Source: a bacterium (GTDB taxonomy: Bacteria > Patescibacteriota > Minisyncoccia > Minisyncoccales > GWA2-46-15). From it: a stretch of 64,000 nt of DNA. The position numbers and the translations under genes are program-made. The stretch lies in NCBI GenBank assembly GCA_030693425.1, contig JAUYAM010000001.1, positions 10,858 through 74,857 of the forward strand. Direction: 5' to 3'. This document shows, one piece after another, positions 3,623 through 56,951 of the stretch. The notes below the pieces were generated by a model. The model was given only the letters and a program-made list of their open reading frames with translations. It ran no database searches and was not told the DNA's origin. Each line of letters opens with the position of its first letter. Within the stretch, counting starts at the first letter, position 1.

Positions 3623-6325
3623 CTAGGCAACCGGAGCTTTTTCTTTGGCTTCTGCCTTGACGTTTTTAATAGATTTTGGCAGGGGAAAAACGATCTTGCC
3701 GTTTTCTTCATCAACCAAAACCGGAACTCCTGATTCTATCTCGGCCGTCACCAGTTTTAAAGCCAGGGGATCTAAGATCAGCTGCTGGATAACTCTTTTG
3801 AGAGGCCGGGCTCCCAGGTTCTGATCAAAGCCTTTGCCAACCAAAAACTCCTTGGCTTTTTCAGAAAATCCGAGCTCAATCTTCTTGGTTTTCAGCCTGG
3901 CAGTAACTTTCCCCAGCTCGAGCTCAACGATCTTCCTGATCTCGTCCTTGCCGAGATAGTTGAAGACAATGATCTCGTCAACCCGATTCAGAAATTCGGG
4001 CCTAAAAGTATCTTTCAAAGCCTGAAGAACCTTGTCTTTCAGGGATTCTCTCATGGAATTGCTTTCGTCTCCGGAAGTAAACCCTAAAGCCGCCTCTCTG
4101 GTGATAATCTCAGACCCAGCATTTGAGGTCATAACCAGAATGGCGTTTTTAAAAGAAGCGACTCTGCCCTTGGCATCGGTTAATCTGCCATCTTCGAGTA
4201 TCTGCAAGAGCATGTTAAAAACCTCGGGGTGGGCTTTTTCGATCTCGTCGAGAAGAACAACGCTGTAAGGGCGCCGGCGGATCTTTTCGGTCAGCTGGCC
4301 GCCCTCTTCGTAACCGACGTAGCCAGGGGGGCTACCTATCATTTTTGAAACCGTATGCTTTTCCATATACTCCGACATATCAAGCCTGATCATGGCGTTC
4401 TCGTCATTAAAAAGGAACCCGGCCAAGGCCCTGGCGGTCTCGGTCTTGCCGACTCCGGTCGGACCCAAGAACATGAAAGACCCCAACGGCCGGTTCTCTT
4501 CTGAAATGCCGACCCGGGACCTGCGAATGGCGTTGGCGATCGCTTTAATGGCTTCGCTCTGGCCGACAACCCTTTTCGTCAGGATCTCCTCAATTCTGGC
4601 CAGTTTTCTGACTTCTTCTTCCATCAGCCTGGTTACGGGAATGCCCGTCCAGCGGCAAACCACTCCAGCGATGTCTTCCTCGTCGACTTCCTTTTTCAGA
4701 ATTGGCTTTATCCTTTGGACTATTGCCAGCTTCCTCTCAGAGCTTCTCAGCTGTTTTAAAAGTCCGGGGATTTTCCCATACTTTACCTCGGCGACCTTCT
4801 GAAGGTCGCCCTGCCTCTGGGCGGCTTCTGCTAAAAATTGAGCTTCTTCAATTTCCTTTCTTAAATCCTTGATTTTATCAACAATCTCTTTCTCGCCTTT
4901 CCACCGGCCCTCGATCGCCTTGATCCTCTCGCTTAAATCAGCTAACTGCCGGGAAACCGTCTTAATTTTCCTGGCAGACCCCTTTTCGTTCTTTAAGGCC
5001 TGCTTTTCAATCTCTAGTTTCTGGGCTTCCCTTTTCAAATTCTCCAGGTCTGCCGGCTCAGACTCCATTTCCAGTTTTAAAGAACTCATGGCCTCGTCCA
5101 TCAAGTCAACTGCCTTATCCGGCAAGAATCTGTCAGGAATATACCTGGCAGACAATTCAGCTGCCGCCCTCAGGGCAAAATCCTTGATTTTGACACCGTG
5201 ATACAACTCGTACTTTTCCCTGATCCCTCTCAAAATCAAAACGGCGTCTTCGATTGAGGGTTCGGCTACGTAAATGGGCTGGAATCTTCTTTCCAGAGCC
5301 GGGTCCTTTTCAACGTATTTCTGATACTCCTTGAGAGTGGTGGCGCCGATCGCCCGCAACTCTCCCCTGGCCAAAGCCGGCTTTAAAAGGTTAGAAGCGT
5401 CAATAGCGCCTTCGGCGGCCCCGGCTCCGACCAAAGTGTGAAGCTCGTCAATAAAAAGGATATAGCGGCCCGAGGCCCGATTAACTTCTTTCAGCAAGGC
5501 CTTGATCCTGTCTTCGAACTCGCCCCGATACTTTGTTCCGGCGATAATCGCGCCCAAATCCAGGGCAATGATTTCCTTGTCTCTCAAGCTCTGAGGAACT
5601 TCTGAATTGATAATCCTTTGAGCTAAGCCTTCAACGACCGCGGTCTTGCCGACTCCGGCCTCGCCGATCAGAACCGGATTATTCTTGGTCCGCCGAGACA
5701 AAACCTGCATCAGCCTCCTGATTTCGTTCTCTCTGCCAATAACCGGATCCAGTTTTCCCTGCCTGGCCAGCTGGGTCAGATTCCTGGCATACTTTTCAAC
5801 CACCTGGTATTTTGACTCCGGTTCCGGATCGGTAACTCTCTGGCCGCCCCTGATCTGGGCCAGGATTCTCAAAGCTGTTTCGTAGTCTAGCTTGCCGAAT
5901 TCAAGAATGGTTGATCCGTCGCCAATGGCGCTGGCTTTCTCTAAGATGTCTTTGGCCCGGGTCGGCACTGCCAGCAGCGCTAAAAATAAATGCTCGACCG
6001 AAATGAATTCGTCTCCCATTTTCATTGACTCCTGCCTGGCCGTTTCCATCACTCTGCCCATGTCCTGGGTCAGATAGAACTGGCCGAAAGCCTGAGGAGC
6101 AACAATCGTTGATATCTTGGCGATCTCCTGATCAACCTTCTTTCTCAAGGCTTCGCTATCGACTCCAAGTTTTTGCAGAAGACTGGAAACAACGCTTTCT
6201 TCTTCAGAAAGCAAAGCCATTAGCAAATGCAGGGCGTCAATCTGCTGCTGGCCCCTTTCTTGAGCGATGTTTTGAGCCCGGAGAATCGTGTCTTGGGCTT
6301 TGCGGGTAAAATTGCCTCCGTTCAC
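3623..6325 (-). CDS. clpB: ClpB disaggregase (two AAA+ modules plus middle coiled coil)
   Basis: Clp N-domain, Walker [11 protein letters not shown] and GPTGVGKTE, and a long coiled-coil M-domain. 900 aa with a GTG start. Confidence 0.95.
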
Positions 6326-6430: not shown

Positions 6431-7756
6431 CTACTCGCTCCTCTCTCCTAAAATCAAGCTGACCGTGTTTTCCTTGCCGTTTCTCAAGACTTTAAGGGAA
6501 ACCGTTTCTCCCGGGCTGTATTTCTGAATAATCTTTGCCAAAGAGTTTTCCGTGGTCACTTTTTCGTTATTGAATCTGAGGATAATGTCGCCGTCTTTGA
6601 TTCCGACCTTGTCGGCGGCAGAACCCGAAACTACGGCCACGTCTTTGGCAGTTTCGCCGCGGACCACCCAGGCGCCGTAATCTACCGGCAGATTATTTTC
6701 CTCTTTGACCTTATCGTTAATGAGAACGTATCTCACTCCCAAGAAAGGATAAACGATCTTGCCGATGGTTTTCACCTGCTGAATATCCCTTTTGGCGAGA
6801 TTTATCGGTATGGCAAAGCCAATATTCTGGGCCTGCAGGACCGTGGCGGTGTTAATGCCGATAACCTCTCCCCGCAGATTAAGAAGTGGCCCGCCTGAAT
6901 TTCCCTGGTTGATGGCCGCGTCCGTCTGAATGACGTCTTCTAATGTCTCGACAAAACCTCCGCCCGAAGCGGTAATCGTCCGGCCGAGGCCGGAAACCAC
7001 GCCGACCGAAATAGTGTTTCTAAACTCTCCCAGGGCGTTGCCGATAGCGATAACCGTCTGGCCGATTTCCAGTTTCGAAGAATCTCCCAGTTTTACCACC
7101 GCAAAGGGCTTAGGAATAAGGTTCCCGGAATTGTCAGTAACATTTTCCTTTTCGATCTTTAGAACCGCCAGGTCCTGGGCCGGATCTTTGGCCAGGACTT
7201 TGGCCGGGAACTTTCGGCCGTCATTGGTCAAAATCGTGTAATCGGCTTCGGCGTCCAGAACTACGTGTTTGTTGGTCAGAACAATGCCGTCTTCGGAAAC
7301 GATAAAGCCCGACCCGCCGCCGATCTCTTTTTTCTCGGTTCCCTTTTGCCGGTATTGGGGAATTTTAAATTCAAACGGCTGGCCGAAGAAATCATTAAAA
7401 GGCGAGACGTAATACTCTTCAATCACCGGTAAATCCTTGGTGATGATAATTGAAACTACGGCCGGGGAAAAATCTTTGACCACGTTGATGACCGCCTGCT
7501 CCTGGGTGGTCTGAGGGATATATTCTCTGATTATTTCTTTTTCCGAAAGTTCTGGTCCGGGCAGCGCAATTTTCAGTTTTTCCAGATAGGGCTGCAAATA
7601 AGTCTTGACTGCCTCGGGATAAAAGCTGTCGGTCAGAATGCCCGCGGAAAACCCCAGGGCCGCAAAACCGACGACCAGAATAATGACAACCGGCAAAACC
7701 GGAATCCGGACCGGCCGTTTTAAGTATGATTTAATTTTCCCAAAGACTTCTTCCAT
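6431..7756 (-). CDS. htrA: HtrA/DegP-family serine protease with PDZ domain
   Basis: N-terminal TM helix. Triad motifs are intact: TNKHVV (His), DLAVLKI (Asp), GNSGGPLLN (Ser). C-terminal PDZ-like region. Confidence 0.9.
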   Translation of the reverse strand: MEEVFGKIKSYLKRPVRIPVLPVVIILVVGFAALGFSAGILTDSFYPEAVKTYLQPYLEKLKIALPGPELSEKEIIREYIPQTTQEQAVINVVKDFSPAVVSIIITKDLPVIEEYYVSPFNDFFGQPFEFKIPQYRQKGTEKKEIGGGSGFIVSEDGIVLTNKHVVLDAEADYTILTNDGRKFPAKVLAKDPAQDLAVLKIEKENVTDNSGNLIPKPFAVVKLGDSSKLEIGQTVIAIGNALGEFRNTISVGVVSGLGRTITASGGGFVETLEDVIQTDAAINQGNSGGPLLNLRGEVIGINTATVLQAQNIGFAIPINLAKRDIQQVKTIGKIVYPFLGVRYVLINDKVKEENNLPVDYGAWVVRGETAKDVAVVSGSAADKVGIKDGDIILRFNNEKVTTENSLAKIIQKYSPGETVSLKVLRNGKENTVSLILGERSE

Positions 7757-7760
7757 ATCG

Positions 7761-8933
7761 TTAAATATTCTTTAAAGAATTATGGGTTAATGTTTTTATT
7801 ATCCTCTCTTTAGCCAGAACGAGAGCGATATCTCTGGGGTTGCGTTTCCTTTTTAAGCTTTCTCTTAAAACATCCCTGGTGGCTTTCCGGATTTTTTCCT
7901 CAACCGTTTTAAACATGAACTCCGGAGACTTGCCCTGCCACTCGACAAAAGAAGAAATGACGCCGCCGCCGTTGGCGACAAAGTCCGGAACGATCACAAT
8001 CCCCTTTTGCCAAAGCTTATTCTCGATCTTTTCGGGAATCGGAATATTGGCTCCTTCGACAATAATTCTGGCTCTGACTTTCCGCCAATTTTTCTCGTTG
8101 ACGACGTCGGAAACTGCGGCCGGAATCAGAATATCCACCGGCAGTTCATAGATTTTGTCTCTGGCTATAGCTTTGCCGCAGCCAGCCAGCGGCTTTTTTC
8201 TCTTTTTCGCGCTGATAATCTTATTTAAATCTAAACCGTCTTTGTTGAAAATGGCGCCTTCGGCTTCAGAAACGGCCACGATCTTGGCCCCGGCCTCAGA
8301 CAAGTGCTTGGCGGCAAAACTGCCGACGTTGCCAAAACCGGCAACGGCCACGGTCGCTCCCTTTAAATCAAGATTTGAAAGCTCGGCAGCAACCTTGGCA
8401 GCCTCGGCTACTCCAAAACCGGTAGACCCTAGCTCGTGAGGCAAACCGCAGTTGCATTTTTTGGCGACGCAGAAACAAAAATCCTTGGGCTTTCCAGTGG
8501 CTGAATTCCAGATTCCTAGGGCCTGGCTAAACCACTTCATTTCCTGTTCACCCGTGCCAATATCTGGTCCGGCAATATAGTATTTTGGAATAAAAGGCGA
8601 TAAAAGTTTGGCAAAAGCCTGAATAATTTCTTTTTTCTCTTTTAAAGAGAGTTTCCTTGGATCTACCACAATCCCTGCTTTAGCCCCGCCAAAAGGGAGT
8701 TCAAAAAGAGAATTTTTCCAGGTCATGGTTCTGGCTAAACGGAAAAGCTCGCCCAAAGTCAGGTTGGCGGCCATCCTGATTCCCCCCTTGCCAACCCCGA
8801 GAGCTAAATTGTCAATAATCAAAAACCCCTTAAATTTCGGCTTTAAAGAATTAACCTCAACCACGTATTCTGGGCCGAATTCGTCTGCAATGATTTTTTC
8901 TTCTGTTTTCATATTCTCGTTAACTATCATCAA
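7761..8933 (-). CDS. Glu/Leu/Phe/Val-family amino-acid dehydrogenase (glutamate dehydrogenase-like)
   Basis: GKGGIRMA and PFGGAKAGI catalytic blocks, plus a Rossmann motif GFGNVGS. Confidence 0.85.
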   Translation of the reverse strand: MMIVNENMKTEEKIIADEFGPEYVVEVNSLKPKFKGFLIIDNLALGVGKGGIRMAANLTLGELFRLARTMTWKNSLFELPFGGAKAGIVVDPRKLSLKEKKEIIQAFAKLLSPFIPKYYIAGPDIGTGEQEMKWFSQALGIWNSATGKPKDFCFCVAKKCNCGLPHELGSTGFGVAEAAKVAAELSNLDLKGATVAVAGFGNVGSFAAKHLSEAGAKIVAVSEAEGAIFNKDGLDLNKIISAKKRKKPLAGCGKAIARDKIYELPVDILIPAAVSDVVNEKNWRKVRARIIVEGANIPIPEKIENKLWQKGIVIVPDFVANGGGVISSFVEWQGKSPEFMFKTVEEKIRKATRDVLRESLKRKRNPRDIALVLAKERIIKTLTHNSLKNI

Positions 8934-49508: not shown

Positions 49509-50399
49509 CTAGATAGAAAATAATTCGCGAGCGTTCTTTGTTGTCTGTTCTTCTATTTCTTGATAGCTTAATTTTTTGATTTTCGCAATTTCCCGAACAA
49601 CCTGCTTCACGAACAACGGTTCGTTCCGGAGATTCGCTGAACCACACTGACCCTCCCGCTGAACTACGCTGGAATTTGGTGGAATAAGATAAGGCGCGTC
49701 GGTTTCTACCAAAATTCTATCTAAAGGCGCGGCCTTGATAATTTCTTGCCAGTTTATCCCCGCGATCTGCTTAAAAATGATTCCGTTAAAACCCAAAGAC
49801 AATCCCAGGGCTAAATATTGCCGCATTTGCTCTACTGTGCCAGTAAAACAGTGCATTACTCCTCGCAACTTAGTATCTTGTATTTTGTATCTAGTATTTA
49901 GTATTTCTATAAGATCGTCATGAGCGGAGCGACAATGAAAAATAGTTGGTAAATTCAATTCCTTTGCCAAATCCATCTGCGACGACAAGCCCTGTTTCTG
50001 AAGATTTTTGAATATTTCTAATTTTGTTTTACTTTTCGGCTTCCAATAATAATCCAGGCCGATTTCGCCAATGGCCACAACTTTTTTTGAGCTGGCGGCG
50101 AGTTTCCGGTAATCCTCAATATCAAAGCCCTTGACCGTTTCTTGCGCCGCTGCTTCTTCCGGATCAAGCTTGTTTTTAATTAAATCCGCTGTTCCGAGGA
50201 CGTGAATCGGATGCAAGCCAATGGCGGCAAAAACGCCTTGGGGATATTTTTCTGTTAGCTCAATTGCTTTTTCGCTCGTTTCCAGCTGCGAGCCGACATT
50301 AATCATCCAAACCTCATTAGCTAAAGACCGTTGAATAACTTTGTCAACGTCATCTTTAAAAGCGTTGAAATTCAAATGGCAATGGGTATCTATTATCAT
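49509..50399 (-). CDS. tatD: TatD-family metal-dependent hydrolase
   Basis: MIIDTHCHLNF, GEIGLDY, IFHCRSA, HCFTG, ETDAPYL. Confidence 0.9.
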   Translation of the reverse strand: MIIDTHCHLNFNAFKDDVDKVIQRSLANEVWMINVGSQLETSEKAIELTEKYPQGVFAAIGLHPIHVLGTADLIKNKLDPEEAAAQETVKGFDIEDYRKLAASSKKVVAIGEIGLDYYWKPKSKTKLEIFKNLQKQGLSSQMDLAKELNLPTIFHCRSAHDDLIEILNTRYKIQDTKLRGVMHCFTGTVEQMRQYLALGLSLGFNGIIFKQIAGINWQEIIKAAPLDRILVETDAPYLIPPNSSVVQREGQCGSANLRNEPLFVKQVVREIAKIKKLSYQEIEEQTTKNARELFSI

Positions 50400-50520
50400 A
50401 ATCCCATTTTAACCTAATTTTGCCGTCTCTGAAACAATTCTCTTGTCCGATGCGGTACCCGAATTTAGTAAAATTAAGGTACTCAAGTATCTGATTTAAA
50501 TACCCATTGATTTGAGTTTA

Positions 50521-50557
50521 AAAAAACAAAAGCGCCTCGGGTTCTTCCCAAGGCGCT
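50521..50557 (-). terminator. Intrinsic terminator closing the micro-peptide locus
   Basis: Hairpin AGCGCCT-N13-AGGCGCT at 50531-50557, followed on the minus strand by TTTGTTTTTT. Confidence 0.7.
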
Positions 50558-50572
50558 TTGTGCTATTTTTGA

Positions 50573-50776
50573 CTAATAACCTCCTCCGCCATGATGAAGG
50601 TGTGTTTCGGCCAACTTCTCGGCTGCCAGCTCGAGCGCCTTGGCCTCGTCCCAATATTTCACCGCATGCTGACGGTCTTTGGTTTCCTTCATCCTTTCGT
50701 AAAGATCTTGCGCCTGATCTCTCATCTCCCCAATAACCTTACTCCAATCAATCTCGCTAACATCTTTGGTGGTCAT
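50573..50776 (-). CDS. Hypothetical 67-aa helical protein
   Basis: The SD GAGAGGAG sits 6 nt before the ATG. MTTKDVSEIDWSKVIGEMRDQAQDLYERMKE...HLHHGGGGY. Confidence 0.6.
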   Translation of the reverse strand: MTTKDVSEIDWSKVIGEMRDQAQDLYERMKETKDRQHAVKYWDEAKALELAAEKLAETHLHHGGGGY

Positions 50777-50788
50777 GACAATCTCCTC

Positions 50789-50929
50789 TCATTGTTTTGA
50801 GTTATCGCGGGCAATTAAACAGAAAGCCACGATCATGGCCGCGACCAATAGAACGAACGCGACGACTGATCCTGTCCCCGTCAAAACGCAAGGGTCGCAA
50901 GCGATAGCAGACAAGCCATATGGGATCAT
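50789..50929 (-). CDS. 46-aa single-TM micro-protein
   Basis: SD AAAAGGAGATTTGAG precedes the ATG. MIPYGLSAIACDPCVLTGTGSVVAFVLLVAAMIVAFCLIARDNSKQ. Below the ORF-track cutoff. Confidence 0.5.
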   Translation of the reverse strand: MIPYGLSAIACDPCVLTGTGSVVAFVLLVAAMIVAFCLIARDNSKQ

Positions 50930-50968
50930 CTCAAATCTCCTTTTATGATCGGCAAAAGATAAAAGGGT

Positions 50969-50996
50969 GAGGCGACGGCGTACGCTCCGTCGCCTC
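50969..50996 (-). terminator. Intercistronic hairpin/partial terminator after the 19-aa peptide gene
   Basis: 10-bp stem GAGGCGACGG-N8-CCGTCGCCTC, followed on the minus strand by ACCCTTTTATCTTTTG. Confidence 0.5.
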
Positions 50997-50999
50997 CTT

Positions 51000-51059
51000 C
51001 TACGACGCCCACGGCCCGTAACGGAAAGTACAGCGGCCGCGGAAAGACCAACGAACCAT
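51000..51059 (-). CDS. 19-aa cationic peptide MVRWSFRGRCTFRYGPWAS
   Basis: SD AGAAAGGAGG precedes the ATG. It is a paralog of 51307-51390, and codons 3-12 differ from that paralog mostly by synonymous changes. Confidence 0.6.
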   Translation of the reverse strand: MVRWSFRGRCTFRYGPWAS

Positions 51060-51099
51060 AGCTACCTCCTTTCTTGTCAAAGAACTGTCGGTCTCGGCT

Positions 51100-51129
51100 A
51101 AAACAAAAACTGGCCCGCCGAGAGACCAG
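51100..51129 (-). terminator. Attenuator terminator C
   Basis: Minus-strand RNA CUGGUCUCUCGGCGGGCCAG followed by UUUUUGUUUU. It lies between micro-ORF P1 and the SD of the 19-aa peptide gene. Confidence 0.6.
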
Positions 51130-51168
51130 TTTTAGAAAGTCAAGGTTTTTAAATGGATTACTATTATA

Positions 51169-51279
51169 TTACCTCAACGCGCCGAAACTAACCTCTGGCA
51201 AAATAAGAGGATAATAGTAATAATAGGCATTGCCTTGAACGGCGTCCTGAATATTAAATTTGCTAAATTTTTGTGTCAT
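51169..51279 (-). CDS. Aromatic-codon micro-ORF P1 (candidate leader peptide)
   Basis: MTQKFSKFNIQDAVQGNAYYYYYPLILPEVSFGALR, with five consecutive Tyr codons. The decoy GAGGUUAGUUU (51195-51185) can pair with terminator C's 5' arm (51132-51122). Confidence 0.5.
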   Translation of the reverse strand: MTQKFSKFNIQDAVQGNAYYYYYPLILPEVSFGALR

Positions 51280-51306
51280 ATAAATTGGTATTCTTAAGCT
51301 TTAACT

Positions 51307-51390
51307 TTAATGGGGAGGATAGATTATTCTATCCTCCGATTGACCGATGAACCAAAATGTGCACCGGCCGCGGAAAGTCCATCGACGCAT
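51307..51390 (-). CDS. 27-aa cationic peptide MRRWTFRGRCTFWFIGQSEDRIIYPPH
   Basis: SD AAAGGAGA precedes the ATG. It shares RW(S/T)FRGRCTF with 51000-51059. The 3' end is encoded by a 9-bp hairpin at 51314-51337. Confidence 0.6.
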   Translation of the reverse strand: MRRWTFRGRCTFWFIGQSEDRIIYPPH

Positions 51391-51404
51391 GGCGTCTCCT
51401 TTCT

Positions 51405-51542
51405 TTAGAAGCCCTGTTGTGGAGGAAGAACTATTATCCACCACGGGATCGATCCACTGTCGCTACGACTAACAATCATTATCGTAGCGACAAGAACGAC
51501 GACAGAAAGAACAACAATTAAGATAATCTTTCTGTTTTTCAT
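51405..51542 (-). CDS. 45-aa single-TM micro-protein
   Basis: SD AGAAAGGAGG precedes the ATG. MKNRKIILIVVLSVVVLVATIMIVSRSDSGSIPWWIIVLPPQQGF. Confidence 0.5.
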   Translation of the reverse strand: MKNRKIILIVVLSVVVLVATIMIVSRSDSGSIPWWIIVLPPQQGF

Positions 51543-51573
51543 TCCGCACCTCCTTTCTTGGAGAGTAAAGAAC

Positions 51574-51598
51574 TAAAAACTGGTCTCCGCGAAACCAG
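51574..51598 (-). terminator. Attenuator terminator B
   Basis: Minus-strand RNA CUGGUUUCGCGGAGACCAG followed by UUUUU, directly before the SD of the 45-aa gene. Confidence 0.65.
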
Positions 51599-51636
51599 TT
51601 GTAGAGAGTCAAAAGATTTTTAAAAATTCCCTTACT

Positions 51637-51714
51637 TTAACGCTCTAAAACTAGTCTCTGGAAAAGACTATAGAAGTAGTTAAAGTAAAAGAATTTTTGC
51701 GATTTCTGTTTCAT
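51637..51714 (-). CDS. Aromatic-codon micro-ORF P4 (candidate leader peptide)
   Basis: MKQKSQKFFYFNYFYSLFQRLVLER, with 8 Phe/Tyr in 11 codons. The decoy GAGACUAGUUUUAG (51658-51645) is complementary to CUACAACUGGUUUC (51604-51591). Confidence 0.5.
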   Translation of the reverse strand: MKQKSQKFFYFNYFYSLFQRLVLER

Positions 51715-51733
51715 ATGTTGAAAATTAACATAA

Positions 51734-52894
51734 TTAAATCTTATTGTCAAGGGCAATATAATAGAATGGTTTATTATCTTGATCTTGGTCAAAATAAACC
51801 TGAGTGTAATTCTCCTGCCGGCGTTTGATATCAATAAGGTATTCTATCAAAAAAAGATTTTTCCTCGGAGAATAAACGGGCACTCCGTGATAGGGCAACC
51901 GGGTACAAATCCTACTAACGGGGAAAATGCCCAAACGATTTGCTTTGGGAGAAACAGTTAAAGGCAGACCGTGTGGCACAACTTTTTCCAGATAATCAAT
52001 GTCGTCACGCGTCTTAAGATAAGCGTGGTATTGAAAAATAGACTCATGCGTTCTTTTCTTGATGTCTTCACGGACCTTACGAGCCTCGGCAGTAATTTCT
52101 TCGTCTTTCAAATTTTCATTGTAAACATCCATTAATAAACTTTCGTCATACATCTTTGTTGAAACGATTCTCAAAACCGATTCGTAGGTTCCTCGATATT
52201 TAGCTAAGAAATCGGGATCTTGTTTTTGATAAAGCTCTTTGAATTCAGCTACTCTCTTCTGATAATGCCCTTGGAAATCCGGCACGATTTTTTCCATCTC
52301 CGATAAATCGATAATCTTTAAAACAGAGTTTAGTCCTAACAACTCATTTAGCTTTTCCAGGAATTCTCGATAAGCAATCCAATCTTCTTCCGGAACGCCG
52401 CTAAATCTTCCGAAGACCCCCTCGGTAAAAATCGTAATAACTGCGCCGGGAGGGTAAACTTTTTGGATATTATCAGCAATCTCACTCAATCTCAACAGAG
52501 ACAAAACTTCTCCCATATCAGGAAAAGTCCTGCTGGTTTTCAGGGGGACTGGCACTTTAAAAGGAAACCCTAAAATTGTCAGCTGGATAAGCAGACCATG
52601 ATTAATGAAATAATTAAGTTTAGAGACCCAAAAATCCTTATTCTCTTGGATATATTCTCTCGGCCCAAAACGATAATTCTCGTCTTGGAATATGGAGAGA
52701 ATTTTCTCGGCAATCGTTTCGCCATTAATCTGCGGGTTGGGCATGGGCAATATTTCGATCAGTCTTTTCAATTCGGATAAATCGATCCCTTTTTTGCTAA
52801 TAAGATTATTGTGGATATTTTTATCTGCGAGATTAACGAACGGTACGAAAGGATAAACAAAAGTGTTTGCTTTCATGTTTTTAAATTCTAACAT
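51734..52894 (-). CDS. PvcA/Dit1-like protein (isonitrile synthase/dityrosine-biosynthesis family)
   Basis: ILGFPFKVPVPLKTSRTFPDMGEVLSLLRL...VYPPGAVITIFTEGVF and TVSPKANRLGIFPV...LPYHGVPV parallel the PvcA blocks (AFPxKSPNPxK...PDMAE...YxPGAxIxICSDGRVF and LSIHP...KxGI...TPWHxV), recalled from memory. Confidence 0.6.
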   Translation of the reverse strand: MLEFKNMKANTFVYPFVPFVNLADKNIHNNLISKKGIDLSELKRLIEILPMPNPQINGETIAEKILSIFQDENYRFGPREYIQENKDFWVSKLNYFINHGLLIQLTILGFPFKVPVPLKTSRTFPDMGEVLSLLRLSEIADNIQKVYPPGAVITIFTEGVFGRFSGVPEEDWIAYREFLEKLNELLGLNSVLKIIDLSEMEKIVPDFQGHYQKRVAEFKELYQKQDPDFLAKYRGTYESVLRIVSTKMYDESLLMDVYNENLKDEEITAEARKVREDIKKRTHESIFQYHAYLKTRDDIDYLEKVVPHGLPLTVSPKANRLGIFPVSRICTRLPYHGVPVYSPRKNLFLIEYLIDIKRRQENYTQVYFDQDQDNKPFYYIALDNKI

Positions 52895-52953
52895 AATAAA
52901 TTTACTTTAAAGAACCGGGGGCTACTGTAGTTTACAATAGCCCCCACTTTTCT

Positions 52954-54471
52954 CTATACAACATAGTAGAAAACGTATGGCTCACCCGTTAAGCCGAACT
53001 CTAGTGGTGAAATCTTTACTTGTTTCGCCTTTGGATGTTCAAAGCTTATCCGGTACTCCGGCACAATCCACATTTTATGGGCGCCGTCAGCGAGACGAGA
53101 AACTACGGGCATCCCGTGGTTTAATAAAGCATTGGCAGTGACGTCAAAGACAATTCTCGCCGCCTTATCGGTAATGCAAGCATCAATGAAGTCATTCACG
53201 CCCAAGATACGGGAAAAGATTCTTGCTCTTTTTCGATAGGCCAAAAGCTTTGCCATAGCGACGGCTGTAATCTCCGCCTTCCGCCACAAATCTTCTCCCA
53301 TCATGAGCCGAAGGGCCTGATAGTTCCTATCTCGTCTAATATAAAGGTCAGCCATCACGTCCATTTGAAGCATATCTGGCAGACTGCAGGCGACAGCGTA
53401 AGTTTGGTCGAAATCTACACCGACGTTAATTGCTTCTACCTCCTTTACTGGAAAAAGGTCTGGCTTCAATTCGACAACCTCGACTGGCGCCCCAAGCGCA
53501 GAGAAAAGTTTCCTACAGATAGAAAGCATCTGCATCACGCTTGCCGGCTCAAGCCCTGTTAGTGAAGCAAAAAGCGTCGCTTCATCAAAGATCACAACCC
53601 TCAACCCTGGCTCATAAATCGTCTTCACTTTCTCGTTGATCAAAGCGAAGAAAAAAGCGAGATATAGCCAAGCGAGTGTTGGAAAGGCAATGACCTCCTT
53701 GAACTTTAATGGGTTAGGAATTCTTGTGCCGATAGCAAAGGAAAGCGTGATTGGTACGGGTTGATTGCGACGCACATAGGTTTTGATAATATTAGCGAGC
53801 CGCGCCAACTCTGCTGCCGGAACTTCAATCTTTTCTTCCGTGTGGGCGATGATAATCCTCAGAATGCCTTCGGCGACACTTCCCCGAGACGGTGAGTAAC
53901 CGGCCATTTTAATTGACAACAAAGATCGGTAAAACCCAATCTCTTTTTCTATTGTTGTCATTCCAGAAGCTATATCGGGCAATGTCAGCTGTAACGGCTT
54001 GGATGCCGCCGCTATTTTTTCCAGGGCCTTAGACAAATCTGCCTGGAAACGACGGGAAGAAAGGTCTAATTTTCTTTTATCGTCTCCGACGGAAATAACC
54101 GCTGACATACCCTCAATATCTACTTTGATTATCTTGGCAAAAGCTGACCAGGGATAATGAGTAGAAGCCACCATCTTCTCAGGGATGGTTTTAACGAGGC
54201 TATGAGGATCGTAAATCCACGCCACCGATTCTTTGATTGTTTCTAAATCTCCTGGCCCTTCGCCTACTTTTATCAGGCGACAGTTAAAACCGATTTGCTG
54301 AAATGCTCCGATGAGATTTTCTGGAACGGCTAAGGTGACTCCCGCCTCACCTAAATCAATAATCATTCTCCAGTATTCATCTTTTTCGGCTCTTTCCAGA
54401 ATTTCCAAGGCAATTGTTTCCGGGAGCTTATCGTTTAATACAAATCCCTTAGGGTTGACAACAACGTTCAT
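52954..54471 (-). CDS. Divergent PvcA/Dit1-like protein with a roughly 230-aa N-terminal extension
   Basis: ITLSFAIGTRIPNPLKFKEVIAFPTLAWLYLAFF...IYEPGLRVVIFDEATLF and ITDKAARIVFDV...LNHGMPVVS show the same block order as the downstream paralog. SD AAAGGAGAG. Confidence 0.45.
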   Translation of the reverse strand: MNVVVNPKGFVLNDKLPETIALEILERAEKDEYWRMIIDLGEAGVTLAVPENLIGAFQQIGFNCRLIKVGEGPGDLETIKESVAWIYDPHSLVKTIPEKMVASTHYPWSAFAKIIKVDIEGMSAVISVGDDKRKLDLSSRRFQADLSKALEKIAAASKPLQLTLPDIASGMTTIEKEIGFYRSLLSIKMAGYSPSRGSVAEGILRIIIAHTEEKIEVPAAELARLANIIKTYVRRNQPVPITLSFAIGTRIPNPLKFKEVIAFPTLAWLYLAFFFALINEKVKTIYEPGLRVVIFDEATLFASLTGLEPASVMQMLSICRKLFSALGAPVEVVELKPDLFPVKEVEAINVGVDFDQTYAVACSLPDMLQMDVMADLYIRRDRNYQALRLMMGEDLWRKAEITAVAMAKLLAYRKRARIFSRILGVNDFIDACITDKAARIVFDVTANALLNHGMPVVSRLADGAHKMWIVPEYRISFEHPKAKQVKISPLEFGLTGEPYVFYYVV

Positions 54472-54512
54472 CTCAAACTCTCCTTTCTTTTGTATAGAGA
54501 TTTTAAAAGAAC

Positions 54513-54537
54513 TAAAAACTGGTCTCCGCGAGACCAG
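54513..54537 (-). terminator. Attenuator terminator A
   Basis: Minus-strand RNA CUGGUCU-CGCGG-AGACCAG followed by UUUUU. It lies 41 nt upstream of the 505-aa gene ATG. Confidence 0.65.
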
Positions 54538-54572
54538 TTGTAGAGAGTTGAAAGGATTTTTCCTAAGAAGAG

Positions 54573-54686
54573 TTAATCATTATCCTCTCCACGCCCCAAA
54601 GCTGGCCTCGTGGAAATAAAAGGATAATAAAACCAAAAACTAATTTGATTTAACTCTTTATTTGGTTTTCTTATTTTTTTAGCCAT
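54573..54686 (-). CDS. Aromatic-codon micro-ORF P2 (candidate leader peptide)
   Basis: MAKKIRKPNKELNQISFWFYYPFISTRPALGRGEDND. The decoy CGAGGCCAG (54610-54602) mimics the 3' arm of terminator A (GAGACCAG). Confidence 0.5.
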   Translation of the reverse strand: MAKKIRKPNKELNQISFWFYYPFISTRPALGRGEDND

Positions 54687-54703
54687 AATTGCGTTTGTTT
54701 GAA

Positions 54704-54728
54704 TTAAAAAAAGGCCTCTGGGGAGGCT
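54704..54728 (-). terminator. Terminator following micro-ORF P3
   Basis: Minus-strand RNA GCCUC-CCCA-GAGGC followed by CUUUUUUU. Confidence 0.55.
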
Positions 54729-54760
54729 TCTTCTGTCTATCGTTATTGGTTTTTAGAGAA

Positions 54761-54844
54761 TTAACGCACAGTCAAAAGATTGCCTCCCGCGAGGGTTAAA
54801 AAGTAGGAATAAAACCAAAATTTTGCGGTCGCAATCTTCTTCAT
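54761..54844 (-). CDS. Aromatic-codon micro-ORF P3 (candidate leader peptide)
   Basis: MKKIATAKFWFYSYFLTLAGGNLLTVR. An in-frame upstream ATG at 54859 lies inside the predicted -10 box. The decoy GGGAGGC (54788-54782) is complementary to GCCUCCC of its own terminator. Confidence 0.45.
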   Translation of the reverse strand: MKKIATAKFWFYSYFLTLAGGNLLTVR

Positions 54845-54857
54845 ATTGGATATTATC

Positions 54858-54886
54858 ATTTAACCACTTATCAAAGTTCTTGTCAA
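54858..54886 (-). promoter_or_regulatory. Candidate promoter of the locus
   Basis: Read on the minus strand: TTGACA (54886-54881), 17 nt spacer, TTAAAT (54863-54858). Confidence 0.4.
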
Positions 54887-54897
54887 GGACAAGCAAG

Positions 54898-54917
54898 AAA
54901 AAATCCCCCGCCGGATC
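54898..54917 (-). terminator. Weak terminator after the 45-aa basic peptide gene
   Basis: Minus-strand RNA GAUCC-GGCGG-GGAUU followed by UUUUC. Confidence 0.35.
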
Positions 54918-54944
54918 TCCTAACGAGGGATTCTTTTCTACTTC

Positions 54945-55082
54945 CTATTTTGTTTTTTTGGACGAACCGTTTTCGATCCGCCAAGTTTTCCAAAATTGCC
55001 GCCACCAGCGCCTTTTTCCCTTCCTGCTGGTAGCTGGACAGATACTTCTTTTACCCGGACCACGAAAAGGGTTTCTTGCCAT
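54945..55082 (-). CDS. 45-aa highly basic Trp-rich peptide
   Basis: SD CTGGAGGAAAG precedes the ATG. MARNPFRGPGKRSICPATSRKGKRRWWRQFWKTWRIENGSSKKTK. The N-terminal M-x-R-x-x-F-R-G matches the RWxFRGRCTF peptides. Confidence 0.5.
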   Translation of the reverse strand: MARNPFRGPGKRSICPATSRKGKRRWWRQFWKTWRIENGSSKKTK

Positions 55083-55196
55083 TTTACTTTCCTCCAGAAA
55101 ATTGAATTTTAAAAGGACTGTCTCGGGCTTTTGGGCCGAGATTGGCCGCCAGTCGCTTCCTCGACGGCCAATGTCCGAACTGAAAACCCGAGGACT

Positions 55197-55221
55197 AAAA
55201 AACCCTGGCTGCAGGCCAGGG
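55197..55221 (-). terminator. Strong intrinsic terminator
   Basis: Hairpin CCCTGGC-N5-GCCAGGG at 55203-55221, followed on the minus strand by TTTTTT. Confidence 0.8.
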
Positions 55222-55253
55222 GGTTGGAACTAAGATATGGTAGATTTATGGTT

Positions 55254-55346
55254 TCAAGATTTCCTAATTAAACCCTCTGGCCTTTGTCCAAGGTTAATGA
55301 CCAAAAGATTAATAGTTAAATTTAATCCGCGAAAACTTTCTGACAT
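55254..55346 (-). CDS. 30-aa ORF inside a short promoter-to-terminator unit (or a small RNA)
   Basis: MSESFRGLNLTINLLVINLGQRPEGLIRKS. No SD. Begins about 9 nt after the predicted transcription start. Confidence 0.3.
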   Translation of the reverse strand: MSESFRGLNLTINLLVINLGQRPEGLIRKS

Positions 55347-55361
55347 AGTTTTGTAATTCTC

Positions 55362-55389
55362 ATCATAGCCAATCAAAACCTATTGTCAA
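55362..55389 (-). promoter_or_regulatory. Sigma70-like promoter immediately after the metG stop
   Basis: Read on the minus strand: TTGACA (55389-55384), 16 nt spacer, TATGAT (55367-55362). Confidence 0.5.
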
Positions 55390-55394
55390 GAGCG

Positions 55395-56951
55395 CTATGC
55401 CTCTATTTTCGGGAAAAGCGGGCCTGGGTTTTTGATTTCTGTCCCGGGTTTAATGTTAGTCCAGCTATCCTTGTTTAAAGGATTTTTAACCAATATTTTT
55501 TGGATGCCCAAAGCCTCAGCGATTTTTCGGCTCGTCTCCGGTAAAAATGGGTATATTTGCCAGGCAACCTGATGTAAAGAATCCAAAAGCCCGTACAAAA
55601 CCCAATTTAAGTCCTCTTGTTTCCCCTCCTTGGCCAAAACCCAAGGCTTTTGTTGGTCAATATATTTGTCCGCCTCGCTGATAAACCGCCAGACAGCAGC
55701 TAAAGCGTCGTTAAACCGGTATTCAGCCATGTTTTTATCTAAATCCGCCCAACTCTTTTTCCAATTATAGATATTTTCATCAATCCTTAATGGATGGCTG
55801 TCTGGGTCTCGGTTAACTTTAGGAACTTTCCCGCCGCAGTAGTTCTTCACCATTGTCAGAACTCGGGAAACAAGGTTGCCCAAGCCGTTGGCCAAATCAG
55901 CGTTATAAACCTCTTTCAGCTTGCTCTCGGAGAAATCTCCATCTTCAAACGGAGAAACTTTAGCTAAGAGATAATAACGGATAACGTCGGCGCCATATTT
56001 TTCGATAATCGGGGCCGGATCAATAACCGTTGATGGGTCGGACTTACTTATCTTTTTCCCGTCAACTGTCAGATAACCATGGATTAAGACGCATTTAGGA
56101 AGAGGAAGTCCGGCCGAGAGTAAAAAAGCTGGCCAATAGACGGCGTGAAACCGGCTGATTCCTTTCCCAATGACATGAACATCCGCCGGCCACCACTTCT
56201 GGTACATCTCTTCATCCCAGCCAAAACCAATGCCGCTTTGATAAATATTTAAAGCGTCCATCCAGACGTAGATTTTTTGAGACGGATCTCCCGGCACCGG
56301 CACGCCCCAATCCTTCGCTCTTTCATTGGACCGGGAAATAGAAATATCAGAAAGACCGCTTTTCAGAAAACTTAGCACCTCGTTCTTTCTGAACTCAGGT
56401 ACGATTTTAAGATCTCCGTCCTCAATAAGCTGGACGATCTTATCTTGATATTTTGAAAGCGCAAAGAAATAGTTCTCTTCTTCCACCTGATCAAGTTTTT
56501 TGCCGCCATGCTCGGGACATTCGCCTTTTTCATTTAAATCCTCTGGAGTGTAAAAAGCTTCGCAGCCAACGCAATAAAGTCCCTTATATGGTTTTTTATA
56601 GATATCCCCGTTTTGAGCGCACCGTTCCCAAAGTTTTTGGCTCGAGAGAAAATGATGGTTCTGATCACTGCCTTTCTGCCAGACATTAAACTCGCCGTTT
56701 AATTTTATTGCTAGTTGCCGAAAGGCTTCCGTATTTTCGTCAATAAATTCCTTGAGCGGCCGGCCGGCTTTCTCTGCCGCCTGAACATTTTTCAGAGCGT
56801 TTTCATCCCCGCCGGAAAGAGATAACCCTTCCTCGCCTAAAAGCTGATGATACCTTTTAAGCGCATCAACCTGAACGAATTCCAACGCATGCCCAGTATG
56901 GGGCTTGGAATTTGCGTAAGGTATTGCAGCGGTAATATAGAATTTATTCAT
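55395..56951 (-). CDS. metG: Methionyl-tRNA synthetase
   Basis: IPYANSKPHTGHALE (HIGH-type), Cys knuckles, KISKSD (KMSKS). Confidence 0.95.
   Translation of the reverse strand: MNKFYITAAIPYANSKPHTGHALEFVQVDALKRYHQLLGEEGLSLSGGDENALKNVQAAEKAGRPLKEFIDENTEAFRQLAIKLNGEFNVWQKGSDQNHHFLSSQKLWERCAQNGDIYKKPYKGLYCVGCEAFYTPEDLNEKGECPEHGGKKLDQVEEENYFFALSKYQDKIVQLIEDGDLKIVPEFRKNEVLSFLKSGLSDISISRSNERAKDWGVPVPGDPSQKIYVWMDALNIYQSGIGFGWDEEMYQKWWPADVHVIGKGISRFHAVYWPAFLLSAGLPLPKCVLIHGYLTVDGKKISKSDPSTVIDPAPIIEKYGADVIRYYLLAKVSPFEDGDFSESKLKEVYNADLANGLGNLVSRVLTMVKNYCGGKVPKVNRDPDSHPLRIDENIYNWKKSWADLDKNMAEYRFNDALAAVWRFISEADKYIDQQKPWVLAKEGKQEDLNWVLYGLLDSLHQVAWQIYPFLPETSRKIAEALGIQKILVKNPLNKDSWTNIKPGTEIKNPGPLFPKIEA

Follow-up and report, generated by a model that had tools for sequence, protein, structure and literature searches.

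Micro-peptide genes as the likely payload of aromatic-amino-acid attenuators in a Patescibacteria locus

The minus strand of a 64,000-nt stretch of patescibacterial DNA (GenBank assembly GCA_030693425.1, contig JAUYAM010000001.1; hereafter the window) carries two micro open reading frames (ORFs), RW-B and RW-C, that encode short cationic peptides with a common core. The explanation that accounts best for these ORFs and for their relatives in other genomes – to which we give a probability of about 0.62 – is that they are the protein-coding payload of attenuators that sense charged aromatic tRNAs. We begin with the evidence that the peptides are translated and selected, then describe the switches that precede them, and weigh what the product of the switch might be.

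A family of translated micro-peptides

51059-51000, minus strand: RW-C micro-ORF, 19 aa, MVRWSFRGRCTFRYGPWAS, Y-type member
51390-51307, minus strand: RW-B micro-ORF, 27 aa, MRRWTFRGRCTFWFIGQSEDRIIYPPH, F-type member

Both micro-ORFs are present as an initial annotation of the sequence had described them, with an ATG start behind a strong Shine–Dalgarno sequence (SD): AAAGGAGG, 6 nt upstream, for RW-C, and AAAGGAG, 5 nt upstream, for RW-B. Over codons 3 to 12 the two copies are identical at four positions, differ by a synonymous change at five (CGT/CGA, CGC/CGG, TGT/TGC, ACT/ACA and TTC/TTT), and exchange Ser for Thr at the last one. This similarity belongs to a 38-nt repeat, itself a portion of a duplicated module. 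It goes beyond chance, because of the place of the repeat in that module, of seven further members that are all in frame and of the substitution pattern that we now document.

Nine peptides from four genomes make up the RW family, those of the window being joined by seven members from contigs L001, L008 and L015. The first of these contigs comes from a metagenome-assembled genome (MAG) of Candidatus Nealsonbacteria. It was obtained through a homolog, 69% identical, of the DIT1_PvcA protein of the window, with which it is syntenic. Its genes are ordered MetRS, a 533-aa protein, DIT1, a gap, TerC, TatD and LeuRS, and the 'gap' consists of three tandem units encoding MVRWSYRGRCTWRWL, MRWSNKGRCTYIFG and MIRWSFRGRCTFWY. 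Scanning GTDB genomes with a degenerate pattern combining SD, ATG and motif re-found this contig together with L008, from a MAG labelled Saccharibacteria, which encodes MKRWTFRGRCTWQWT, MSRITQWSFRGRCTFNF and MVRWSFRGRCTFRYRLRIS. A pattern scan of metagenomes gave L015, where MSRITRWSFRGRCTFSF is encoded directly 3' of a DIT1 gene. Chance accounts for 12 of the 13 matches of that scan: L018 and L019 are in frame in an unrelated context, and the others are out of frame or inside large ORFs.

Elsewhere the family was not met. Viral contigs contained no RW member, and a Pfam search of the RW peptide gave no match. Among 5.8 billion called proteins, none had three 5-residue words in common with the 45-aa extended form of the RW-B ORF. 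There was no RW ORF in more distant DIT1 loci, nor in the other loci that were fetched (L002-L007 and L023-L026), and GTDB representative genomes queried with the DIT1 protein yielded no confirmed relative. Next to the closest TatD relatives (L027-L031) the island that harbours the RW genes is missing, or the contig ends. As searches beyond four genomes came up empty, the family must be seen as real but narrow and patchy, and we propose that its carriers form a narrow Nealsonbacteria-like clade. With 14 to 27 codons only, its ORFs are invisible to gene callers. The family is previously undescribed, and its motif was not found in the literature that we searched.

The family core reads W-[ST]-x-[RK]-G-R-C-T-[FWY], where W, G, R, C and T are invariant in the nine members. 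All four third bases are used in the codons of the invariant Gly, Arg9 and Thr. Ser is encoded by TCT, TCA, TCC or AGT, while Arg7 appears as CGC, CGG, CGT, CGA or AGG, or gives way to Lys (AAG). Per site, pairs of members differ by 0.12 at codon position 1, 0.18 at position 2 and 0.52 at position 3. Pooled Nei–Gojobori estimates give a proportion of synonymous differences (pS) of 0.69 and of non-synonymous differences (pN) of 0.147. The in-frame ratio is 0.21; the two other frames give 2.2 and 1.3. All nine members keep the AAAGGAG SD, the ATG and a stop located 2 to 15 codons from the core. Finally, the CCGCGG/GCGGCCGC word is replaced in homologs by CCGGGG, AAGGGC, CGTGGC, CGAGGT or AGGGGA. 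Codon usage, pN/pS and the loss of this word together argue for selection on the translated peptide. That the RW ORFs constitute a family of translated and selected micro-peptides, as comparison of the sequences indicates, is thus very probable, and the earlier claim of paralogous peptides under purifying selection is borne out by the homologs. The same annotation had named three outcomes that would speak against translation, namely absence of homologs, breaks of the frame and conservation of the palindrome: each was examined, and in every case what was found favours a translated peptide.

It could have been otherwise. The conservation might have resided in the nucleic acid, RNA or DNA – in the CCGCGG/GCGGCCGC palindrome, in a site bound by a protein or in a portion of the attenuator, for example – with purely incidental ORFs, as TTTCCGCGGCCG common to both window copies and the presence of the TTTCGCGG word in a terminator loop might suggest, but this reading is effectively refuted: the CCGCGG word is not kept in homologs, nor is the TTTCGCGG word of the terminator loop, the changes are concentrated in third codon positions, Ser changes codon family, out-of-frame pN/pS exceeds 1, and SD, ATG and nearby stop are retained in nine members out of nine.

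Where does the selected unit end? Between RW-C and the third peptide of L008 (MVRWSFRGRCTFRYRLRIS) the core displays only three synonymous changes, while the 7-codon tail displays four amino-acid changes. RW tails range from 2 to 15 residues. In RW-B the tail is translated through the hairpin at 51337-51314, the same hairpin being untranslated in RW-B orthologs, and, unlike RW-B, the other F-type members stop 2-3 codons past the core. Because the tails are variable, and that of RW-B is mere read-through of a hairpin, the selected unit is approximately 14 aa long, M-x-R-W-[ST]-F-[RK]-G-R-C-T-Ar-x-Ar, where Ar stands for an aromatic residue.

Attenuators that precede the peptide genes

A repeat of about 55 nt is found three times in the window: upstream of RW-C, upstream of RW-B and of the gene TM-B that precedes it, and upstream of the gene of a 505-aa protein. 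Each copy follows a short ORF rich in aromatic codons and terminates in AACTGGTCTC...GAGACCAGTTTTT, identified as a terminator by an independent scan (51133-51106, 51600-51578 and 54539-54517), with homologous hairpins in L001, L008 and L015. The corresponding features, and those of a further attenuator located upstream, A1, are as follows.

51279-51169, minus strand: leader ORF C, MTQKFSKFNIQDAVQGNAYYYYYPLILPEVSFGALR (...AYYYYYPLILPEVSFGALR), with a run of five Tyr codons; orthologous YYYYY leaders in L001, L008 and L015
51196-51101, minus strand: attenuator C, with antiterminator segment 2 (51196-51174), segment 3 and terminator hairpin 51133-51106 plus U run
TTGACA 51750-51745 / TGnTAATTT 51730-51722, minus strand: probable promoter of leader B, inside the end of the DIT1 gene
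51714-51637, minus strand: leader ORF B, MKQKSQKFFYFNYFYSLFQRLVLER, with a Phe/Tyr codon run
51660-51573, minus strand: attenuator B, with segment 2 (51659-51637), segment 3 and terminator hairpin 51600-51578 plus U run
54686-54512, minus strand: attenuator A2, with leader MAKKIRKPNKELNQISFWFYYPFISTRPALGRGEDND (54686-54573), run SFWFYYPF and terminator 54539-54517; same sequence type as B and C
54886-54706, minus strand: TTGACA promoter-like site and attenuator A1, with leader MKKIATAKFWFYSYFLTLAGGNLLTVR (54844-54761), run KFWFYSYF and terminator 54727-54714

In the 11 leaders of this sequence type (type I) that were compared, the codon runs are YYYYY, FFYFxYFY, WW and FWFYYPF. They are conserved among orthologs, and the remaining leader residues vary. 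The WW (Trp) leader occurs, as a third type, in L001 and L008. Each leader ORF ends in a sequence (AGAGACTAGTTTTAGAG) complementary to the terminator's 5' arm. The resulting 17-bp antiterminator helix has 89.8% of its cells paired when the 11 copies are taken together, whereas slid partners give 35-62%; five pairs are altered on both sides, and none of 500 shuffles matches the observed number of pair types. The consequences of ribosome position were predicted with ViennaRNA, by constraining the fold of the same 11 copies with a ribosome-sized block. Free RNA is predicted to pair the aromatic-codon segment with downstream sequence and to form the terminator in eight copies. Ten copies form the antiterminator in place of the terminator when the block is set on the first aromatic codon, and the last one (L001-3) retains its terminator. 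With the block at the stop codon, all 11 copies form the terminator only. Attenuator A1 and the leader of a Leu-type unit discussed further below are predicted to behave in the same way. From these models we strongly infer that the leaders would belong to ribosome-mediated transcription attenuators of the trp/phe type.

These elements match no Rfam family. At gathering thresholds, Rfam recognizes a single tRNA in the whole window; a permissive scan of positions 50300-55500 gave matches at chance level, such as His_leader at 19.8 bits for a threshold of 49, at an unrelated site. In the literature, we found no report of leader-peptide attenuators in the Candidate Phyla Radiation (CPR).

In four genomes out of four the F-type leader ORF starts 7-8 nt past the -10 box (window 51714-51750, minus strand; L001 12335-12371; L008 3865-3905, minus strand; L015 438-475, minus strand). 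This distance is so short that the first codon would be the 5' end of the mRNA, and leader B, as well as F-type leaders in general, is probably borne by a leaderless mRNA. In L008, the start of the W-type leader overlaps the stop of an upstream Amidohydro_2 gene (ATGA, 4160-4163, minus strand), so that this leader is probably translated by coupling, not from a promoter of its own. Its terminator has no U run.

What do these switches control? Type-I leaders number 14 in five genomes, three of them in the window. An RW ORF comes directly after eight of them; in one case TM-B stands before RW-B; the four A2 copies lead into large operons, and the last one is cut by the end of its contig. In six of the nine RW units (the three of L001, units 1-2 of L008 and that of L015) the RW ORF is the sole SD-led cistron, and is therefore the regulated product of the unit rather than a passenger. 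Judging from this organization, we hold it likely that the RW gene is the payload of an aromatic-amino-acid attenuator.

The same type of switch drives larger genes, among which those of the window form the following operon.

54471-51734, minus strand: operon behind A1 and A2, encoding a 505-aa remote PvcA-like protein (54471-52954) and a 386-aa DIT1_PvcA protein (52894-51734)

The 386-aa protein belongs to the DIT1_PvcA family (Pfam E = 6.6e-21) and has many relatives in Patescibacteria. BLASTP aligns its 505-aa neighbour to it through the Y-P-G..I-F-[TD]-E region with E = 6e-4, which makes this neighbour a remote paralog; the neighbour also resembles PvcA 3E59 and NF045653 weakly. The scores of both proteins fall well short of the equivalog cut-off. 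We found no paper on PvcA-like genes in CPR in the literature. The tandem of A1 (KFWFYSYF) and A2 (SFWFYYPF) is reused as a cassette, at 54512-54886 (minus strand) in the window, 7600-7985 (minus strand) in L008 and 2675-3060 in L030. Its cargo comprises the 505-aa and DIT1 proteins in the window and in L015; a 242-aa protein, Peptidase_M19 (a dipeptidase), GNAT and Amidohydro_2 in L008; and 142-aa and 55-aa Cys-rich proteins in L030. Because PvcA/DIT1-like and peptidase operons are driven by the same type of switch as the RW peptides, we strongly infer that each RW gene is part of an aromatic-amino-acid shortage regulon. Peptidases among the cargo are what one would expect if, as is canonical, shortage induces amino-acid acquisition.

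Effector, sensor or precursor

In the scenario that we favour, a unit would open with a short, probably leaderless leader ORF, containing a run of Tyr (YYYYY), Phe/Tyr (FFYFxYFY) or Trp (WW). When the supply of aromatic amino acids is ample, the ribosome at the leader stop would mask segment 2, the AACUGGUCUC...GAGACCAGUUUUU terminator would form and transcription would end. A ribosome stalled on the aromatic codons would instead let segment 2 (..AGAGACUAGUUUUAGAG..) pair with the 5' arm of the terminator, and RNA polymerase would read through. It would thus reach the strongly SD-led ORF, 14-27 codons long, that encodes M-x-R-W-[ST]-F-[RK]-G-R-C-T-Ar-x-Ar. The free peptide, cationic and with a single Cys, might then act in trans as a small effector of the shortage response, most plausibly at a membrane interface, on the cell's own transport machinery or at the surface of a host. 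This last step, the trans-acting effector, is tentative, and we would place it somewhat below even odds. We know of no classical amino-acid attenuator with a 14-aa peptide as its sole product.

A further feature links sensor and product. The residues that follow Cys differ according to the type of leader, with CTW(R/Q)W in the W type, CT(F/Y)xF in the F type and CTF(R/W)Y in the Y type, and the residue at Cys+4 is the amino acid read by the leader in nine peptides out of nine. The match holds both in the lineage of L001 and in that of the window, L008 and L015; position Cys+3 varies. The aromatic residue at Cys+4 might therefore, in the scenario just outlined, give each paralog its amino-acid specificity. 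Pushed to its limit, the idea would make the three RW paralogs amino-acid-specific starvation messages, naming to a receptor – the cell's own uptake machinery or the host cell on which this ultra-small bacterium relies – the missing W, F or Y that it should supply, or else a tunnel-bound arrest module that measures the same amino acid at the level of translation. We regard this extension as quite unlikely.

Several points weigh against the view of the RW ORFs as payload, or against an effector role of their product. The evidence for the attenuator/payload model is comparative or predicted throughout. The family is known from only four genomes, two of them close to the window, so that its evolutionary depth comes mainly from L001. 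The U runs that follow the terminators of L008 unit 1 and L001 unit 3 are poor. Y-type leaders have no SD, and neither inspection of the sequence nor a scan revealed a promoter belonging to them. The match at Cys+4 involves three module types, with a chance probability of about 1/27 to 1/6, and for this reason it is suggestive, not proven. No signal peptide or exporter is linked to the RW genes, the 14-aa forms being too short to contain a signal peptide. Last, aromatic residues make up 21-36% of RW peptides (14-27 aa, net charge +3 to +6, one Cys), compared with 9.9% for ten large ORFs of the window. A three-fold enrichment in aromatic residues, the scarce one included, in a product induced by their shortage suits a sensor acting in cis better than an effector.

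Such a sensor is the most serious rival. The RW ORF would be a second sensor acting in cis, through hungry codons or as an arrest peptide, and the free peptide would have no function. Codons 12 and 14, aromatic and matched to the type, would make the ribosome pause while the conserved RWSFRGRCT core occupies its exit tunnel; a ribosome paused or terminating beside the downstream hairpin would then decide on termination or processing, or on whether the following leader or gene is translated. Besides the aromatic content of a shortage-induced product, this would explain why the aromatic residues at Cys+2 and Cys+4 match the codon run of the leader in nine cases out of nine, and why a strong hairpin (z -2.6 to -6) follows or ends every RW ORF, beginning 2-9 nt past the stop in eight of the nine members. 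Those of the window, already pointed out in the initial annotation, stand out against shuffled sequence (z = -4.8 for 50996-50969 and -4.6 for 51337-51314). In E. coli, terminators located a few bases past a stop codon are repressed by the translating ribosome, which provides a precedent (PMC4824070). Moreover, F-type units continue into Y-type leaders across a promoter-free junction, and the conserved residues are at most about 12 aa away from the presumed pause site. Known arrest peptides have their conserved residues close to the pause site in like manner: TnaC, SecM and Erm leaders are, as RW ORFs, very short, with amino-acid conservation near the C-terminus and structured RNA directly downstream.

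RW ORFs differ from these in that they mostly have no conserved regulated gene downstream, lie at variable distance from their hairpin and lack the known arrest motifs. The geometry is not conserved, with tails of 2-15 aa, a hairpin inside RW-B and 7 to 22 nt between codon 14 and the hairpin. W- and F-type RW ORFs have only the next unit downstream to regulate, a fresh promoter follows each W-type unit in L001 and L008, and no regulated gene comes after six of the nine RW ORFs. Leaders that merely sense codons do not conserve other residues, whereas RW peptides keep ten. On balance, we consider the cis-acting sensor rather unlikely.

Much less probable is a role as precursor of a cofactor or of a ribosomally synthesized and post-translationally modified peptide, processed, for instance through its Trp and Cys, by the co-regulated PvcA/DIT1-like enzymes or by some other maturase. 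Both residues are invariant, PqqA is an example of a tiny precursor, and RW genes adjoin, in the window, L001 and L015, 505-aa/DIT1_PvcA genes endowed with the same type of attenuator. However, the RW units of L008 follow the dipeptidase/GNAT/amidohydrolase operon, with no DIT1 gene within 8 kb, and DIT1 homologs are widespread in Patescibacteria, where most of the loci fetched have no RW gene. The layout of the peptide is inverted with respect to the usual one, its N-terminus being conserved and its C-terminus variable. Furthermore, PvcA-type enzymes act on free amino acids, and no radical-SAM, YcaO, P450 or protease/exporter gene is linked to the RW genes.

How does the RW payload compare with known systems? 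The attenuators share with those of E. coli trpL/trp, pheL/pheA and pheM/pheST a leader ORF with a run of the sensed codons (WW in trpL, Phe-rich in pheL and pheM), mutually exclusive 1:2, 2:3 and 3:4 pairings followed by an intrinsic terminator with its U run, and a leader stop placed in such a way that the terminating ribosome covers segment 2. Unlike them, they match no Rfam leader family by sequence or covariance model, include a pure Tyr sensor (YYYYY) and apparently leaderless leader ORFs, and control a 14-27-aa peptide gene or PvcA-like and peptidase genes in place of biosynthetic enzymes or a tRNA synthetase. The principle of attenuation is already known; novelty lies in the lineage, in a sensor specific for Tyr, in a micro-peptide as payload and in the match between residues of sensor and payload.

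For the peptide itself, a parallel comes from Sinorhizobium meliloti, where the 14-aa leader peptide of a Trp attenuator, peTrpL, is reported to have a function in trans, antibiotic-dependent destabilization of mRNA (PMC7298713). peTrpL and RW peptides are both aromatic-containing micro-peptides born in the context of an amino-acid attenuator, peTrpL, of 14 aa, having a function of its own; they differ in that peTrpL is the leader peptide itself and the RW peptide a downstream, SD-driven payload, and they have no sequence similarity.

Yet another comparison is with the short cationic Arg/Trp-rich antimicrobial peptides, such as tachyplesin, indolicidin and lactoferricin fragments. A length of 12-20 aa, a charge of +3 to +6, a high content in Trp, Phe and Tyr and an R-W-x-F-R ... 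G-x-C-x-Ar-R pattern are common to both, but RW peptides have a single Cys in place of disulfide pairs, have no linked signal peptide, propeptide or exporter, and are regulated by amino-acid supply. The likeness is compositional only. Phenol-soluble modulins and leaderless bacteriocins are likewise tiny, unprocessed, ribosomally made peptides devoid of signal sequence. They act on membranes as amphipathic helices 20-45 aa long, and have ABC exporters dedicated to them; RW peptides, rich in Arg and aromatic residues, are shorter and have no linked exporter.

The locus and its neighbours

Besides the RW genes, the units of the window contain the following features.

51542-51405, minus strand: TM-B micro-protein, 45 aa, with a single transmembrane (TM) segment; between attenuator B and RW-B
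50996-50955, minus strand: hairpin and U-rich tail, beginning 2 nt past the RW-C stop
50929-50789, minus strand: TM-C micro-protein, 46 aa, single TM segment; co-transcribed after RW-C
50776-50573, minus strand: 67-aa soluble protein, final gene of unit C; terminator 50559-50529

On the minus strand one meets, in order, a Leu-type promoter and leader unit, a 45-aa basic ORF, A1, A2, the 505-aa gene and the DIT1/PvcA-like gene; then leader and attenuator B, TM-B, RW-B and its hairpin, leader and attenuator C, RW-C and its hairpin with the U-rich tail; and finally TM-C, the 67-aa protein, the terminator at 50559-50529, TatD and LeuRS. There is no space for a promoter between the hairpin of RW-C and the start of TM-C at 50929, and this hairpin with its U-rich tail probably acts as a terminator that leaks, or is repressed by translation, before TM-C. 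Everything from A1 to the 67-aa gene (within 50529-55389) forms an island between the MetRS unit and TatD, absent in L027-L029, where TatD is 71-73% identical, and present in a rearranged form in L001, L008 and L015.

The initial annotation had paired each RW gene with a single-TM micro-protein. Both micro-ORFs are there, but the pairing is not a feature of the family: it is missing in the three units of L001, in units 1-2 of L008 and in L015, and the TM-B homolog of L008 sits in a different unit, 3' of a Y-type RW gene. These absences and this relocation rule out the TM micro-protein as an obligate partner of RW.

Two more ORFs, opening with MARNPFRG (55082-54945) and MSESFRG (55346-55254), had been brought together with the family. 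Both exist; neither is kin to RW. The former is variable cargo, with unrelated basic ORFs in its place in relatives. The latter is the leader of a different attenuator, where 'FRG' becomes FCG in relatives.

55346-55254, minus strand: Leu/Asn/Ile-rich leader ORF, MSESFRGLNLTINLLVINLGQRPEGLIRKS; terminator 55221-55203

This Leu-type unit, located downstream of MetRS (55389-55195, minus strand), has a consensus TTGACA/TATGAT promoter at 55389-55362. It is conserved in L027 and L028 (MSESFCG... and MSEGFCG...), and L001 has a similar unit. A conserved RNA with two hairpins (..ATTGGCCGTCGAG..CGGCCAAT, CTCGGCCCAAAAGCCCGAG) comes after the Leu-type terminator and before the SD of a small ORF, very basic and variable, which in the window is the one opening with MARNPFRG. 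This RNA has no match in Rfam and may be a new cis-regulatory element.

~55095-55190, minus strand, in the window; 7340-7400 in L001; 7620-7690 in L028; 7690-7740 in L029; ~1790-1860 in L024: two-hairpin RNA

Distant CPR contigs also contain leader-peptide attenuators, of another sequence type, with the leaders MCHRESQNLFFYILKPLRLGG, MQSVKNQNLFILILKFFWLGG and MFYVIILFD.

8650-8860 and 11470-11660 in L003; 1680-1800 in L024: other-type attenuators

They precede a DIT1-containing operon in L003 and L024 and, in L003, a pair of genes coding for a 255-aa protein and Peptidase_M28. As this other type is found in distant contigs, attenuation may be a common mode of regulation in Patescibacteria.

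Very little has been established on gene regulation in these organisms, or on how they perceive that they rely on a host for amino acids. Here, a single locus packs at least five textbook leader-peptide attenuators in 5 kb, in a set that comprises Tyr-, Phe/Tyr- and Trp-specific versions. The match between the amino acid that is sensed and a residue of the peptide provides a testable handle on what would be either peptide signalling or a two-stage sensor, and the switches, small and modular, are amenable to cell-free systems that dispense with culturing the organism.

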